Assembly: GCA_963846575.1 (NCBI GenBank)
Contig: CAWJWJ010000002.1
Coordinates: 2,464,001-2,528,000 of the forward strand
Reading direction: 5' to 3'
Origin: an uncultured Nitrospiraceae bacterium
Lineage (GTDB): Bacteria > Nitrospirota > Nitrospiria > Nitrospirales > Nitrospiraceae
Length of the DNA: 64,000 nucleotides
In this document: in pieces, positions 33,001-39,000 of the stretch
Layout of the letters: each line of letters starts with the position of its first letter
How positions within the stretch are numbered: position 1 is the first letter of the stretch
Position numbers: made by a program

Positions 33001-36000
33001 GGGACTCGCACCCGTCAGGCCAAACAACCCAGTCAACCCGACAACGGACACAAAACCGACAATTAACTTCATAACAATTCTCCGCACTCCCAATAAACTC
33101 ACCTATCCCTCGTGCGACGGAGTCGGCAAGAACCCCGCCTCCTTCTCCGCACTCACATCTTCATGCATGACCGGTTGCCGCCCACGCTGACACACCCAGA
33201 ACAGGAAAAACACGGCGCCCCAAAATACGACCATGTTAATGGTGACCATTTTGGCTGCGAATCCGAGCGACGGTGTAAACGCCCAGGGAGAGGCATCCGG
33301 CATCAACTCATTAACATGCCAAGCCAAGCGTCCTGAAGAGCGAATGTAACCCATCAGCCCCATCACCCAGGTAAAGGCCGCCGCCAATCCGAATAAGCCA
33401 ACCATGCCTCGAATGGAAATCCGCCCCCATTGCACGGGACCATGAATCGTCGCGCCGCGCAACATGCGCCGATTCAACAGCAATCCCAGCGTGACTACAG
33501 CCAGCGTCGTGACCGCCTGCGGACCGGAAAGTCCCACCCGGAGACTCGCCGGAAGATAGAATCCATATACCGATAAGCCGATAATGTGCGCCACCCCGAA
33601 ACCAAACAAGGCTCCCATAATGACGTTCCCGGTCTTACGCCATGAAATGGTCAGACTACGATTCGCCCGACGATAGAAGATGTAGCTCAGCGCGGTGATA
33701 CAAATCATGACATTGACCGCACCATTTTTCGACGACATGACGCCGTAATTTCCGATGACCGGGTGTTGCGCTCCACCCATGGCTTTCACTTCGGTACCAG
33801 TCATGAGAATAGTATGCGGCGTTAACCAGATAAAGAGGCATGCGGTAAGACCCAACAGCAGATACTGGTAGTAGGATTGGTACCGCTCGCCGCCACGAAT
33901 TCGTCCCATACTCTGCCACAGATAATAGTTGACCCCCAGGAAGAGCGCGCCGATCAGAAGCGCCTGAACTACAAAAAGCCAGGTCAACAACCCGCCCATC
34001 ATAGTCACGCCCATACTCTGGCTGTAGGCGTAGACCGAGCGCATTAACCAATAACCGGCGAAGGGCATCGGTAACAAGGCGCAAACGGTGACGAATAAGA
34101 ATATGTAACCGACCCAATCGTAGTACGCGCGCTCCTCCTGGGTCTTACCAGTGAAGAAACGATAACAGGCATAGGCCAGGACCACCGCACCGCCCGACAT
34201 AATGTCTGCTAAGAACCGATGCAGATTCAATGGATTCCAGAGGGCGGAATGGAGCAGGTGCCAGGGATTACCCAAATAGCGCCCCTGGTCGTCGACCCCT
34301 GCCGGCGCCATCATGAAGGCGGACCATGCGTTGGCGAGCAGTAGCAAGGACGTCCCGAATACCACCGCCGTCAACCCTAGGGAAAGATGTACCCACTTAA
34401 CACCGGGTAGGGCCATACGATCCCACGTGTAGTAATAGGCAATCGTGAGAAATGTCGTGCCCATGAAGACGAGGGCGTACAGCGGCATCATCACCTTAAA
34501 CGTCCCGCCCATGTACTGCATAAAGCTGGGATAGAGCGTGATAAACATGGTCAGCATGAGGCTGCCCACGACGGCGGTGACGGAGAGAGCCAGCAGCGCC
34601 ACCTTCAGGAGGTCTTGCGCCAGGCCGTCATATCGTATGGCCAATGCAGGATTTCGCGCGAGCAACCCGAGGAACTCCAGCAGGACGCAAAAAATCGGCA
34701 ACGCCAACACAAAGCCACCGAAATAGGTGTGCTGTTGAATGATAAACCACATCAACAACCGGCTGTCGACCGAGCCAAATTGAGGATAGTGGCTCTCATT
34801 ACCCGTCGGCGCCGACGGGCCGCTGGGAACACCGGGTGTATTGAAGTACACATCTCTGGAAGAGTCTGCCGCCCTGAGCGAATCCGGATTCCACAAGGCA
34901 ACCCCTGCGTTCGATAGCACCACGCACAATAGCACACCGATCAAGACCCGAAACGAAAGGCGTGTGGTCATGACGATACTCTCTGACTGTTTTTTTCAAA
35001 CACAGCCGCAGATGCATTCAATGACGAAGTGGAAACGGACTTACGAGACTGGCCGAGAATCCCCATCACGAAGGGACAGCGCAACAATGCTTCCGGCACC
35101 TCTCCTGACTGACGATTCTCGAGGTCCCGTCGGGAGCCCAAGTAATAACAGTACAAGGCCATCAGTCCACCGACTAGCCCCGCGACCCCTGCAAAGCTGC
35201 CCATCGACTGCATTGGTTGTTTCAACACGTAGAGACAGCTTCCGAGGAGTACTAAGTAGTACGTCGAGGCGAACGCCAATCCAGGCCACCACCAAAACTT
35301 CATCAATTCTCCCCAACGAGTCGCCGCGAGCCTGGACCACCATGCTCTTCCACCTGCCTGGCCGGCAAAAAACGCGAAAAGCGCCACCGTTCCCGCTGCC
35401 ACACTCACGATGCCGCCTTGCATCAGTACGGCCAGGTCCCCACTCACCGCATTGGCGACCATCGCGGAAAGGCCCGCGCAAGCGAGGACTCCAACGCCGA
35501 TCCAACTCAACAGGATCGGGTCAAATCGTTGAAGTAGGGAACGCAGCTCTGCTCCGTCAGGAAAGGTCATGAGCGGACGCCCGTTGGACTCAAGCCACCG
35601 AAGGTACCCGATTTCAAAGGCGTCACGAGCGACCGCTGTACTCGGAATAATCAGCGCCATCATCGCGGGCCCGTCAGGATGTTTGGCATAGTCGTATCCC
35701 ACCAGCCATAACAGGGCCAACACCAGCAGCGAAAGCTGAACACCATAGACAAACCCGATCCAGACCAGCACCCATCCGATACGCCTGATACCATCCGCGC
35801 CCGTCAAGCGGGCGAAAGGCACTGCACGCCCGACACGATAGGCGCAGGCGGCGGTCGCCATCGAGATCAGTCCACTCAGCAGAAGTAGGGTCATGGGATC
35901 CGCCAGCGAAAAACTCTGCTTGGCAAGTCGATAGCAGGCGAAGGCCACCAGCCCGGGGACAAACATGACCAGACGCTTGCGCTTCCGAGCTGAGTCTTCA

Positions 36001-39000
36001 GTCACGGGTAAGGTCAAACTGGGGAGAACGCGTAATGCCAGCCGATGCAACATGGTTCATCCATGGGGAGTGAGGGGTTGGGCGAGGAGACGATGCCTAC
36101 GTCGCAATCCTCAAGTGCGTCTCAGTATTTATGCCTCTTCTCGCTGCGGGGCCATACCGAAATATCGCGCCTTGACCTCTTCCATCAAGGCGACGGTTAC
36201 GGAGACTGCGCCACGATCTACAGCCGTCCGCTCCAGTTCGATTCGAGCCATCGCGCGGACTGGTGCAGGAACGTTGGCGAGCCGACGCTCGGCTTCCGGA
36301 TCCCACGACACCACATCGCCAGTCTGAGCCTGATCGATCAACTCATAGGTAATCACGCGCTGCCGCCTGGTCCGGGCAAACCCTTCCACAAGATCGCGCA
36401 GCGCAGGGACCGCATATGGTGGCACACGATCCAGGCGATGCCTGGCCTCATCGCTCCACATCAGCCGATCGACGATCCCATCGACCTGCCCTACCGGCAG
36501 GTCGATGCCGACCAGCCACCGACAGGAGCGACATTCCGAGCGAACGAACCAGGTTGGCGTGCCGTCCTCGGCATTCCGTTCCTCAACCCCCTCGGTATGC
36601 ATCCATCCCCCGCACCCGCAAACCAGCATGTCGTGTTCAGCCTCTCCGTGCTATCCGATCTTCCCCGGATACAGGATATACAGCATGGCATAGGTAAAGG
36701 TTCCGGTGAGAAACAAGATGCAGTAGACGATCATGGTGAAGCGCCCCAGCGCGCGATGCCGCTGGCTGCCATCCGGCCAAATACGTTGAATCCCCATTTC
36801 CACCGCAAATACAACCGCTACCAGAATGAGCAACCAGAGATAGACTTCCAATTTGCGTATGGAGAACCCCGCGGACCAGACACGCGTGCCGAACAGGAGC
36901 GCCACAACTGCGGTGAGCCCTACAAAGATGAGACTGACTTTTTTCCATGATGTCTGCAACAGACTACCACTCAGCACTCGGGCGCCGCTGATGAAGCGTT
37001 GCGCGCGAAAACCCAGTACGATCATGTAGACCGCCATGACCAGTCCAATGATCACGAGGATGATGTGAATGGTGAGGACGGGAATGAAAACGTAATCGTA
37101 GAGCGCTTGAGAACCGCCGAATCCTTCTTTCCCTTCGAACGCCAGCACGCCCAGTTGGCGAAACAGGTAATAGGCGGTAAAAAATCCCACCATGGTCACC
37201 ATGCCGCCCAACATCAGCCAGTGATGGCCGTCCGCCCGATGGCGTTTGGCCTGAAACCAGCCGATGATGAATAGCCCCGTAAATAGGGCAGCCATCAACT
37301 GGCTAAGATCGGCACCCAGCGTCGCATGTGTCCCGAAGAAACCCGGTTGTCGAAGGAGCTCAAACATGGTACATCCTAACAGCCAATCGGCTTGACACCT
37401 TGAACCACGGCCGTCCGCTCAATTTCCTCAACCGCGACATACCCTCCATCATGCATCCACTGCATCGCTTCTGCCGTACGATAGCAGGCGCCCCGCTCCG
37501 TATTTACAAGAATATGGACGGCAAATGCCGCGGTCCAAGCCGGGCTTGTGCCGGAAGCATCCAAGAAGCGATCCTTGATGACTAATCGGCCACCGGGATT
37601 GAGATGGCCATGGATCTTTGTCACCAGCGCGGCATTGGTCGCCAGGTCTTGGTAATGAAGAATGTCCGACATCAACACCACATCATAAGGACCGCCTAAC
37701 GAATCACGATTGAAATCACCGGGTTTCAATTGAATTCTCGCCTCTAACCCGGCTTCCTTCACGGTGCGTTCAGTCAAGGGTAGGGTGGTCCGGAGGTCGA
37801 AGACCGTCGCCGAGAGTTGTGGATAAATTTGGCAAAAGGCAATGGCATTCGTCCCCGCCCCCCCGCCCAGATCAAGCATCGTGCGAGCCTTGTCGAGCCC
37901 CAGCCGTTTCGCAAGATCAGGCCCGCTTTGCTGCCCAATCCGATGCAAGACGGACAGGACGTTTGCCCCAAGCGCCGGATCCGTTTCAAAGACATGCTGT
38001 GTCACCGGGGAGCGGCCGGTTCTAATGGCCTCTTCCAGCTTCCCCCAATTGCTCCACTCGGCATCGTGCAGGAGAAGTAAATGCCCTACATACTGAGACG
38101 AATGTTTGACTAGATGGGTTGTGGCCACCGGGCTGTTGGCGTAAATATCGCCGGTTTTCGCGAGGAGTCTGATTGCCACCAGCGCATTAAGCAGAAGTTC
38201 CAGTGTCCGGACATCGGTACCGATTTTTTCAGCGGCTTCGACAGCTGTACGCCCTCGGCCATCCAGCGCCGAAAAGACATCTAACTTCACAGCGGTCAAC
38301 AGAATTTTTGTCTCCCAGTAGTAGCCCAGCTGGAAGATTTCGGCGAGAGACAATTCTCGAGGCACTCGTCACCCACTCAGTTATGTGTCGTTCAAATTGG
38401 GCATCTTACCCAGTTCAGAAAGGGAAACGCAAGGCGAGGAGAGTCACGGAACGCCCCATAAAGAAGGCTGATATTGCGGCGCTGTGCCCGCACGCGCACA
38501 GCGATCCCGTGTAGGTGGAGCACGCCACCGAATCGTCGTTTCTCGCGAGAGCGGATAACAATAATCGACAAACAAAAAGAGCAGTGGCTCATTGGAACCA
38601 CTGCCCTTCCTGCGGCGGGATCACCCCGCGGAGACGAGTAATTACTTGAGGTCGGCTTTCAAGGTAGCCGTTCCACCTTCGGCAACTTCGACCTCGAACT
38701 CATTCAGCTTTCCCCGGTTCACAAACGGGTGAAAGACCACCACTTTGTGTTTTCCAGCAGGAACACCCTTGAGCTCGAATGATCCATCTTCCTTCACGAC
38801 CGCGTGGTATGGGTTGGCGACTGGGAGGAAGAAGGATTGCATGAACTCATGCTGGTCGCACTGCAACCGGTAATAGCCCTGCTTGTCCGCTCCGCCGCGG
38901 AACTGCACTGGCTTGTCCAACGTGTCACCCTTTTTGGCCAGACCAATGTTGAAACCAGTGGCTGACGAGGAGCCCTTCACCGTAAAGCTGTGCGGATTGT

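Follow-up and report, generated by a model that had tools for sequence, protein, structure and literature searches.

The window, a 64,000-nucleotide stretch of the genome of an uncultured Nitrospiraceae bacterium, carries a Nitrospirales-specific operon of nine genes, which encode in order an O-methyltransferase (OMT), a long form of DUF420, a four-cysteine PCP_red protein (Cys4-PCP_red), an eight-TM protein without known family, the cytochrome bd-like protein bd-like_4, a DUF3047 protein, a small membrane protein and two FGE-like proteins. Our tentative reading, to which we give a probability of about 0.45, is that the operon combines a low-abundance bd-like_4 module with a dedicated cofactor-supply trio. 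The initial annotation had described five co-directional ORFs (OMT, DUF420, PCP_red, the 361-aa protein and bd-like), and these stand in both position and strand; the conserved unit is, however, larger, comprising nine genes within a syntenic block of ~20 kb. The unit and its surroundings are as follows.

38642..39439, minus strand: u265, exported 265-aa protein, flanking and outside the unit, with the type-1-copper-like pattern H147 ... C194-x2-H197-x2-M200
38571..38604, minus strand: hairpin of 7 bp, G+C-rich, with a 10-nt loop and then a T run, read directly from the sequence
37376-38365, minus strand: OMT, O-methyltransferase of the class-I SAM type, dimerisation domain at the N-terminus, 329 aa, opening the unit
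36651-37367, minus strand: long-form DUF420 (CtaM/YozB family; Pfam DUF420), 238 aa, six TM helices
36129-36629, minus strand: cytoplasmic PCP_red protein (Pfam), 166 aa, a four-Cys knuckle head followed by two PCP_red domains
34968-36053, minus strand: 361-aa membrane protein, eight predicted TM helices, without known family
33103-34971, minus strand: bd-like CydA homologue (Pfam Cyt_bd_oxida_I), 622 aa, matching 'bd-like_4'
32416-33102, minus strand: DUF3047 protein (Pfam DUF3047, 53.7 bits) with N-terminal signal-like segment
31981-32373, minus strand: u130, small Gly/Ala-rich membrane protein, 130 aa, without family
31052-31966, minus strand: membrane-anchored FGE-sulfatase-domain protein (Pfam FGE-sulfatase, 196.7 bits), 304 aa
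30087-31040, minus strand: second membrane-anchored FGE-sulfatase-domain protein (Pfam, 186.7 bits), 317 aa, closing the unit
30056..30084, minus strand: perfect (12/12) sigma-70 consensus with 17-nt spacer, just past the last gene of the unit
27780..29573, minus strand: match to bd-like_3, then the genes of two cytochromes c and of an alternative NxrC; neighbouring unit

The five genes from OMT to bd-like_4 keep identical order and strand in 19/19 loci fetched (from the 25 Nitrospirales with a match; two loci are cut by contig ends), and u130 is kept in all 18 loci that extend that far. One locus (L012) has an unrelated 353-aa ORF inserted between the PCP_red and 361-aa genes. Inside Nitrospirales the ~20 kb from a multicopper oxidase to the alternative NxrC are syntenic in loci reaching that far, so gene order alone weighs little. 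Intergenic distances are more telling: across the 19 loci, with 17-19 measurable gaps per junction, the medians, taken junction by junction from OMT through to the final FGE-like gene, are 8, 33, 90, 2.5, 15, 24, 23 and 11 bp, while those flanking the unit are ~198 and, after the last FGE-like gene, 595 bp. In the window the end of the 361-aa gene and the beginning of the bd-like gene share 4 bases (the 2.5 bp median is from 18 loci), and the DUF3047 gene begins one base past the bd-like stop. Transcript levels in N. moscoviensis are even across the unit (OMT 350, DUF420 154, PCP_red 443, 361-aa 306, bd-like_4 262, DUF3047 256 and u130 234 RPKM) and some ten-fold below those of the flanking genes (4348 and 2645 RPKM). 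Such close spacing (8 to 90 bp), together with the evenness of transcription, speaks for a single regulated unit.

Both ends of this unit have a candidate boundary. The hairpin at 38571..38604, which is absent from the list of a terminator scan that accepts loops of 3-8 nt only, is likely, from its sequence, the terminator of the gene upstream of OMT, and would thus mark the upstream boundary. The sigma-70 site at 30056..30084 is the sole promoter-like site in 29400-39000 (shuffled sequences average 6.0); its sequence and position make it likely to drive the neighbouring unit of bd-like_3, cytochromes c and alt-NxrC, which would set the downstream boundary. The 304-aa FGE-like protein has a hydrophobic anchor at its N-terminus and a total of two Cys. 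The haem c motif CxxCH was found in none of the nine unit proteins; its absence counts against a cofactor-supply role.

As we infer its workings, the operon would encode a second, low-abundance bd-like module, in which a CydA-like protein of 622 aa, its proton-channel Glu lost, is paired with a translationally coupled 8-TM protein, with OMT, DUF420 and PCP_red as the module's dedicated cofactor-supply set. The long DUF420 would act as CtaM does for haem-copper oxidases, either moving or reducing a metal ion or handing over haem, and the transfer would follow its conserved ladder of Asp and His residues, starting on the cytoplasmic side. Cys4-PCP_red would be its cytoplasmic partner, with the Cys4 knuckle holding a metal, the PCP_red domains a tetrapyrrole, or both, and OMT may modify a small molecule bearing a hydroxyl group, either a quinone or a haem derivative, that the module uses.

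The earlier proposal that the DUF420 protein is a CtaM relative is supported. It scores 66.2 bits against a Pfam cut-off of 30.5 and retains the family-wide conserved residues: across 29 long and short forms, D20, H48 and H101 never vary, and conservation of H204 is at least 90%. CtaM/YozB, the aa3/caa3 haem-copper oxidase assembly factor of B. subtilis and S. aureus, has this Pfam family and Asp/His/His/His set in common with it, and both are membrane proteins with an oxidase-type membrane protein as operon partner. The long form differs in having two additional TM helices inserted in the four-helix family core (the AF2 model, pLDDT 89.9 and pTM 0.82, has six long helices), in having a PCP_red protein and a methyltransferase as neighbours rather than cta genes, and in residing, unlike CtaM, in a host with neither haem-copper oxidase nor haem A synthase. 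As previously stated, the genome (99.93%-complete) has no haem-copper oxidase (0 matches to COX1, PF00115); nor does it have CtaA above cut-off, so the client of DUF420 cannot be a haem-copper oxidase. Among 151 Nitrospirota genomes the long DUF420 is present, full-length, in 25/25 Nitrospirales besides the window's own, and in one genome of a sister order (G108). The long form is rare: out of 1.84 billion cluster representatives, 119 match it at E <= 0.001, and many of these are fragments.

Work on B. subtilis from 2026 proposes, in the available text (PMC13344008), that CtaM serves oxidase centres by copper export, copper reduction or both, and the long DUF420 might likewise supply periplasmic acceptors, namely the upstream cupredoxin-like proteins and multicopper oxidase, perhaps also NirK, with the bd-like protein holding no copper. 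As judged from sequence, the three upstream cupredoxin-like proteins and the multicopper oxidase are as plausible copper acceptors as the bd-like protein. In the 265-aa product of the gene directly upstream of OMT, H147, C194, H197 and M200 are invariant in 19 orthologues and recur in two paralogues further upstream; past these a 741-aa multicopper oxidase is encoded, and the accessible part of Lücker et al. 2013 (PMC3578206) reports cupredoxin-like proteins and a multicopper oxidase within this conserved cluster. The N. moscoviensis homologue of the 265-aa protein, at 4348 RPKM, ranks 20th in transcription. We nevertheless consider supply to these acceptors unlikely. The cupredoxin reading is motif-based, with no cupredoxin family or fold returned by Pfam, Atlas or PDB sequence searches; the upstream gene forms a separate transcription unit, more than ten-fold above OMT; and in the sister-order genome twelve matches to the 265-aa family are spread over four contigs, none within ~37 kb of the long DUF420. 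Moreover, what DUF420 conserves is Asp and His, without the Met or Cys that Cu(I) transporters usually have.

The 166-aa protein scores 85.3 bits to PCP_red, in two domain copies (Pfam), and its C4, C6, C33 and C36 are invariant in 20/20 Cys4-PCP_red sequences, among them a sister-order paralogue. It matches the C-terminus of the DPOR subunit BchB, the second PCP_red copy aligning to residues 469-523 (3aek_B), as well as stand-alone forms of the domain (2l09; compare 2kru). However, the nitrogenase-like body of BchB is absent (41.6 bits to the NCBIfam BchB model, against a cut-off of 509), a Cys4 head is present instead, and the host is, according to the literature, a non-phototroph, unlike the BchB/DPOR context. 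It had been noted that PCP_red occurs in five genes of this genome and is fused in one of them to an AhbD-like radical-SAM enzyme; we recovered both, with 12 domain matches in total and a full-length AhbD/NirJ2-like partner (317-325 bits). Another PCP_red gene lies beside an MrpORP-like Fe-S carrier, and others are fused to Usp or rubredoxin-like domains.

OMT (Methyltransf_2 72.1 bits, Dimerisation 47.2 bits; Pfam) has small-molecule methyltransferases as its closest solved relatives: 3mcz (1.7e-34), RedM, DsyB and SibL. With these and MfnG, and more distantly with BchU/CrtF, it shares the dimerisation and Rossmann domains over its full length, as well as a conserved His at the usual catalytic position. 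D165, D190, D221, D234 and H237 are invariant in 20/20 orthologues, the Asp residues being those of the SAM motif. No equivalog model is attained, the BchU model giving 66.3 bits against a cut-off of 276.1, and the likeness to BchU is generic. Unlike its Methyltransf_2 relatives, OMT heads a respiratory-type operon.

These observations bear on a further alternative, that the trio serves an unrelated step (quinone, lipid, pigment, or haem/Fe-S housekeeping) and shares a promoter with bd-like_4 by descent only. It gains from the entire neighbourhood being frozen throughout Nitrospirales, from the activity of OMT's solved relatives on indoles, kynurenine, tyrosine, thiols and polyketides, and from the several unrelated contexts of this genome's PCP_red genes. 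Outside Nitrospirales, moreover, the long DUF420 does not lie beside bd-like genes. In the sister-order genome it once more has PCP_red genes around it, a recurring link that favours the cofactor-supply reading, although they belong to other paralogues and lie on a contig other than that of both bd-like genes; neither a bd-like gene nor a methyltransferase is near it, and the best match to OMT is 32% identical and in a LolA/MMPL context. Two Nitrospinota MAG loci (16 ORFs scanned) likewise show no PCP_red, bd-like or methyltransferase gene beside it. Yet coincidental inheritance seems improbable given the spacing and even transcription described above, and the arrangement has been kept in all 19 loci while insertions built up just outside it, with the gap between u265 and OMT reaching 1.0-3.8 kb in four. 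The taxonomic range of the 361-aa protein and of the bd-like_4 duplication also equals that of the assembled unit. Of the interpretation first offered, that the trio serves the bd-like protein, a link exceeding adjacency is retained on the basis of gaps, transcripts, the intact CtaM-family residues of DUF420 and the fusion of PCP_red, elsewhere in the genome, to a tetrapyrrole radical-SAM enzyme; the identification of that protein as the terminal oxidase is not.

Turning to the putative module itself, the 361-aa protein has no relative in Pfam, NCBIfam or PDB, and its AF2 model (pLDDT 79.9) gave no fold match (Foldseek E > 0.2; best VIA Z 7.1); it is present in 25/25 Nitrospirales and 0/125 other Nitrospirota. 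The bd-like protein matches Cyt_bd_oxida_I at 57.8 bits over profile positions 2-247 of 418 only. An alignment of five paralogues with two canonical CydA sequences shows that it retains the His residues aligned with CydA H19 and H186, is without the Q-loop half, and is missing the proton-channel Glu equivalent to E107, which the other four paralogues keep. Seven His are invariant across 19 bd-like_4 orthologues, and of these H386, H403 and H552, beyond the haem ligands, are common to bd-like_3 and the NIDE0901-like paralogue.

The window's bd-like_4 is 55% identical to the 597-aa paralogue bd-like_3, whose gene at 27780..29573 retains the Glu. The order there, a bd-like gene and then those of two cytochromes c and of alt-NxrC, with the bd-like duplicate a few genes off, is that of N. 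moscoviensis as given in the available text of Mundinger et al. 2019 (PMC6606698). Likeness also extends to the OR-N 'a/b' subfamilies of the cytochrome bd superfamily, which, in the portion available of Murali et al. (10.1101/2021.01.16.426971), keep the haem-ligand His, lack the quinol-binding half and have the channel Glu in one copy but not the other, its absence being the mark of a non-catalytic 'b' partner. In neither paper does the available text take up the operon structure, the 361-aa protein or the trio. In N. moscoviensis under nitrite-oxidising growth, bd-like_4 is transcribed at 2.7x the median (rank 921), about ten-fold below bd-like_3, a difference that speaks against a simple 1:1 a/b enzyme.

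The genome-wide inventory agrees with an earlier count of eight Cyt_bd_oxida_I matches, two with CydB; these two are canonical (464 and 463 bits), with CydB beside each. Six CydB-less genes had also been counted, of which five are intact and the sixth is a 21.8-bit fragment with an internal TGA. The boldest proposal, in which the adjacent bd-like protein is the 'long-sought terminal oxidase' of Nitrospira, a copper enzyme that receives its metal from DUF420 and whose haem is tailored by PCP_red and OMT, fits the missing haem-copper oxidase, the intact DUF420 residues and the invariant H386, H403 and H552, but is very improbable given that bd-like_4 alone of the five paralogues has lost the Glu, is weakly transcribed, and has no orthologue in the sister-order genome despite its long DUF420, while the candidate favoured in the available literature is another paralogue, bd-like_2 / NIDE0901-like OR-N2, with OR-N1. 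The counterpart of that candidate here is a 665-aa paralogue (C2:~119-121 kb, L005), and the NIDE0901-like bd-like_2 / OR-N2 gene adjoins complex III genes.

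The five genes named in the initial annotation all lie on the minus strand of the window, and their family assignments were reproduced with Pfam and NCBIfam profiles. They are listed here from upstream to downstream, with two signals read from the flanking gaps.

37376-38365, minus strand: O-methyltransferase (OMT), matching Methyltransf_2 at 72.1 bits and Dimerisation at 47.2 bits
36651-37367, minus strand: long DUF420 protein, matching DUF420 at 66.2 bits
36129-36629, minus strand: 166-aa PCP_red protein, two PCP_red copies, 85.3 bits
34968-36053, minus strand: 361-aa membrane protein without family
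33103-34971, minus strand: 622-aa bd-like protein, matching Cyt_bd_oxida_I at profile positions 2-247 of 418 only
38604-38571, minus strand: hairpin with a 7-bp G+C stem, then a T run, in the upstream gap (read from the sequence)
30084-30056, minus strand: TTGACA-17-TATAAT sigma-70 consensus, 12/12, in the downstream gap, ahead of the next unit with a bd-like gene (bd-like_3)

The genes and their order were thus as first described, but the group is larger than the five genes then recognised. Four further same-strand genes follow the 622-aa gene in the window: a DUF3047 gene, whose start is the base right after the bd-like stop, a gene for a Gly-rich 130-aa membrane protein, and two genes for FGE-sulfatase-domain proteins, both membrane-anchored. 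Nine-gene content and order are identical in all 19 loci fetched from the 25 sampled Nitrospirales genomes with a long DUF420 (15 from the family of the window genome and four from a second family), two of these loci being incomplete at contig ends. From the OMT gene to the second FGE-like gene the median gaps are 8, 33, 90, 2.5, 15, 24, 23 and 11 bp; the OMT gene is preceded by a gap of 198 bp at the median, reaching 1.0-3.8 kb in four loci, and the last FGE-like gene is followed by one of 595 bp at the median. The sole interruption among the 19 loci is an unrelated 353-aa ORF between the PCP_red and 361-aa genes, at 11117-12178 of locus L012 from the marine-type Nitrospirales genome G112.

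Transcript levels agree with a nine-gene unit and with its boundaries. In Table_1 and Table S2 of the published N. moscoviensis transcriptome (PMC6606698), RPKM values for the homologues of seven unit genes, OMT to the 130-aa protein, are 350 (methyltransferase), 154 (DUF420), 443 (PCP_red), 306 (361-aa protein), 262 (622-aa bd-like protein), 256 (DUF3047) and 234 (130-aa protein), while the same tables give 4348 for the homologue of the gene directly upstream of the unit and 2645 for the bd-like gene of the downstream unit. The perfect sigma-70 site at 30084-30056 is the only promoter-like site in the region, and it fits the very high transcript level of that downstream unit.

Which bd-like protein the unit encodes matters, as the initial annotation, in its boldest reading, had taken the 622-aa protein for the terminal oxidase of Nitrospira. 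The unit is followed by a 597-aa bd-like gene, genes for two cytochromes c and the alternative NxrC, a cytochrome c / EB_dh protein. This arrangement matches that given by Mundinger et al. (PMC6606698), where bd-like_3 stands with alt_NxrC_2 and has a duplicate "a few genes downstream (bd-like_4)"; the 622-aa gene is therefore bd-like_4. The candidate terminal oxidase of the literature is bd-like_2, the NIDE0901-like OR-N2, whose gene accompanies those of complex III and of an OR-N1 copy, and its counterpart in the window genome is a pair of 665-aa and 567-aa proteins at another locus (L005). The 622-aa protein shares 55% identity with the 597-aa paralogue and 37% with the NIDE0901-like 665-aa one. 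On both identity and context the assignment as terminal oxidase was wrong, if tempting: the flagged gene is a low-expressed duplicate of bd-like_3.

We aligned bd-like_4 with four bd-like paralogues and the two canonical CydA of the same genome. H81 and H251 of bd-like_4 align with conserved haem-ligand histidines of both CydA, which we take to be H19 and H186 in E. coli numbering, and the N-terminal four-helix oxygen-reduction core is present (PF01654 positions 2-247). Three further histidines, H386, H403 and H552, are invariant in the 19 orthologues and common to the 597- and 665-aa paralogues. Profile positions 248-418, with the Q-loop / quinol site and the C-terminal half, are unmatched in bd-like_4, and Lücker et al. 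2013 (PMC3578206) state that the same quinol half is missing from this bd-like class. The proton-channel Glu pair (equivalents of E99/E107) is likewise absent, Tyr and Gly/Thr standing in those columns; the second channel Glu is kept in the other four bd-like paralogues of the alignment, so bd-like_4 alone lacks it. Murali et al. (preprint, 10.1101/2021.01.16.426971) use the channel Glu to separate "a" from "b" copies, which are expected to pair. Lacking the Glu, and with a Glu-keeping copy of 55% identity 3.5 kb downstream, bd-like_4 resembles their OR-N "b" type, but the ten-fold difference in transcript level between bd-like_3 and bd-like_4 of N. moscoviensis argues against a simple, strictly 1:1 "a"/"b" enzyme.

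As a partner for the "CydB-less" bd-like_4, the 361-aa protein is the strongest candidate. Its stop overlaps the bd-like_4 start by 4 bases in the window, and overlap or abutment recurs in most loci; all 25 Nitrospirales searched have the protein, against none of the 125 other Nitrospirota, and its Atlas neighbours are Nitrospirota-only clusters without family. A model of fair confidence (pLDDT 79.9) consists of eight long helices, for which no solved fold relative was found (Foldseek E above 0.2, best VIA Z 7.1). The protein has no sequence or fold match to CydB, and no CydB chain is among the best 50 fold matches listed, though a distant relation may still exist. Both CydB (PF02322) genes of the genome sit beside a canonical cydA. 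An order-specific, eight-TM protein translationally coupled to a bd-like subunit would be a candidate for the partner that "CydB-less" proteins have been missing.

A wider inventory was taken of the window genome, which is 99.93% complete. A COX1 search found no match, in line with the earlier claim that there is no haem-copper oxidase, and no haem A synthase (CtaA) scored above cut-off. There are two canonical cydA genes, each followed by a cydB, two DUF420 genes and, by profile search, the five PCP_red genes already noted. The six CydB-less bd-like genes of the initial annotation reduce to five intact ones, the "sixth" probably being a 21.8-bit Cyt_bd_oxida_I fragment at 2706653-2706823 of contig C2, with an internal TGA in its 76-aa frame.

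The long DUF420 protein matches PF04238 (66.2 bits, cut-off 30.5) in two stretches parted by an insertion. Across 29 aligned sequences, 16 long and 13 short canonical forms, the long form differs from the four-helix family core by two extra helices ahead of the final one. All 29 share D20, H48 and H101, and H204, within an RHR motif, reaches at least 90% conservation. In a confident six-helix model (pLDDT 89.9), oriented by the positive-inside rule, H48 and H204 would be on the cytoplasmic side, H101 halfway through the membrane and D20 toward the outside, an Asp/His ladder that would suit ion passage or cofactor binding. Foldseek returned no fold relatives at E <= 0.001, and a wide VIA-align search only generic helical bundles at Z 8-12, within helical-bundle noise; these included cytochrome b561 (Z 9.9), Dcytb (Z 9.8) and oxidase subunit III chains. 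Long forms are rare: a search of 1.84 billion proteins gave 119 representatives at E <= 0.001. They are also found in Nitrospinota MAGs; the best 120 matches listed in a homologue search are all close Nitrospira relatives (77-99% identity). The sole match in a literature search on DUF420 in Nitrospira concerns HEPN domains.

CtaM, a member of this family, is required for active aa3/caa3 oxidases; a recent suggestion, still tentative even in B. subtilis, is that it exports or reduces copper (PMC13344008). The client of CtaM is a haem-copper (haem A) oxidase, and its gene context is cta/qox, whereas the window protein belongs to a genome without COX1 or CtaA and its neighbours are not cta genes. 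A predicted CtaM-family protein at work in a cell without haem-copper oxidase or haem A would constrain what CtaM's job can be anywhere. The second DUF420 gene of the same genome is short (77.8 bits; C2:1689083-1689502, locus L004) and lies between motB and a STAS-domain gene.

The 166-aa protein scores 85.3 bits against PF08369 (cut-off 32.5) in two copies. All 20 sequences compared keep four cysteines in two pairs of fixed spacing, C4, C6, C33 and C36, which suggests that its head is a metal knuckle of the Cys4 zinc-ribbon or rubredoxin-like kind. Unlike BchB (DPOR subunit B), it is not a full-length nitrogenase-like protein: its NCBIfam score is 41.6 against 509, over only the last ~55 profile positions. 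Its closest paralogue in the genome (253 aa) has the same Cys4 head and stands beside an MrpORP/ApbC-like Fe-S carrier, and another PCP_red domain ends a radical-SAM/SPASM protein whose full-length scores (325 bits for NirJ2, 317 for AhbD) are both below the equivalog cut-off of 500. We call PCP_red tetrapyrrole-associated because of this fusion, NirJ2 and AhbD being tetrapyrrole enzymes, and because of BchB. The domain occurs in at least 75 of 151 Nitrospirota genomes by phylum-wide profile scan, and a literature search found no paper on stand-alone PCP_red proteins, judged by the entries listed. Co-folding of the 166-aa protein with the DUF420 protein (score 0.00, mark 0.32) carries no weight either way.

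Pfam matches give the OMT a dimerisation domain and a SAM-binding fold, and D165, D190, D221, D234 and H237, which presumably belong to the SAM-binding fold and the catalytic His, are invariant in 20 of 20 sequences. It is not BchU/CrtF (TIGR02716; 66.3 bits, cut-off 276.1), and BchU-type chlorin C-methylation was rejected on the same score; the PDB BchU (1x19) matches at 1.6e-08 over the Rossmann part only. A tetrapyrrole-associated domain and a methyltransferase in one unit raise the question whether a haem or a quinone is modified. The two FGE-like proteins (window 30087-31966) have only two Cys each and no Cys pair after the conserved RGGS; as we take that pair to be the motif of true formylglycine-generating enzymes, they probably do not belong to these.

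The history of the unit is illuminated by G108, a genome of the same class and another order, itself without COX1. At 8640-14857 of its locus L007 stand, in order, a ResA-like thiol-disulfide oxidoreductase, a long DUF420 45% identical to that of the window, an MrpORP-like carrier, a PCP_red gene, a haem-oxygenase-like di-iron protein (CADD/DUF3050-type) and a second PCP_red gene, the two PCP_red genes being orthologues of other paralogues in the window genome (54% and 60%), not of the 166-aa protein. This arrangement suggests that DUF420 and PCP_red were linked before the order arose and that the link reappears with different paralogues. Both bd-like genes of G108 are on contigs other than that of the long DUF420, one of them in a cluster of FGE-like, bd-like_3, two cytochromes c and alternative NxrC, and its best methyltransferase match is 32% identical, in a LolA/MMPL context. 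The OMT, the 361-aa protein and the bd-like_4 duplicate thus joined DUF420 and PCP_red only in Nitrospirales. The link between FGE-like and bd-like genes is older than that of the OMT, DUF420 and PCP_red trio, as the FGE-like gene of G108 (1313-2218 of locus L027) lies directly upstream of the bd-like_3-type gene. A locus search with a three-sequence DUF420 alignment added only two Nitrospinota loci, with no related neighbours of the long DUF420 among the 16 ORFs scanned.

Operon structure lends reasonable support to a functional link between the trio and the bd-like_4 module. More specifically, the long DUF420 and the Cys4-PCP_red protein may work together as a module that inserts cofactors into bd-like (OR-N) enzymes, Nitrospira having recruited the mechanism by which CtaM serves haem-copper oxidases for a cytochrome bd superfamily member that bears copper or a modified haem; we would give this reading roughly one chance in eight. 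Nitrospira are the dominant nitrite oxidisers of soils, waters and treatment plants, and to our knowledge their oxygen reduction has so far been inferred from genomes alone. If true, the reading would supply the first assembly factors known for the bd-like (OR-N) class and make CtaM's job independent of haem A and haem-copper oxidases.

Copper delivery to the bd-like_4 module is one of several possibilities. If DUF420 handles copper, proteins encoded upstream of the unit are no less plausible recipients than the bd-like protein. Three exported paralogues there (window 38642-39439, 41701-42753 and 42659-43600) have a common pattern, His ... Cys-x2-His-x2-Met, of type-1-copper-like ligands, invariant in 19 orthologues of the first, the 265-aa protein next to the unit; past them Pfam identifies a multicopper oxidase gene. 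Pfam matches on the paralogues are confined to CarboxypepD_reg/fn3_3, and Atlas and PDB sequence searches found no cupredoxin family for the 265-aa protein, so that the cupredoxin reading is motif-based only. According to Lücker et al. 2013 (PMC3578206), this cluster encodes a multicopper oxidase together with cupredoxin-like proteins, and the neighbourhood has many likely periplasmic copper proteins. The tables of PMC6606698 rank the homologue of the 265-aa gene as the 20th most transcribed of N. moscoviensis. Against these acceptors, the copper-like proteins form transcription units apart from the nine-gene unit, and in G108 their family is not near the long DUF420. Haem c attachment was dropped as the unit's role because CxxCH, the haem c motif, is absent from all nine proteins.

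Two further observations concern genes outside the unit. At 7990-14134 of locus L003 (contig C1, ~1127-1133 kb), the AhbD/NirJ2-like radical-SAM and PCP_red fusion is followed by a Usp / 3xPCP_red / rubredoxin-like protein, and the same run holds a B12 radical-SAM protein (slr0320-like, 446 bits against a cut-off of 775) and UbiE. The bd-like_3-type gene (27780-29573), among the most transcribed genes of N. moscoviensis in the tables of PMC6606698, changes frame near its 3' end, at about 27831: residues 1-581 of a 639-aa same-genus orthologue align in one frame and 581-639 in the next, with a short run of C at the join. In the assembly the last helix of bd-like_3 is thus out of frame, whether because of a sequencing error or a genuine truncation.
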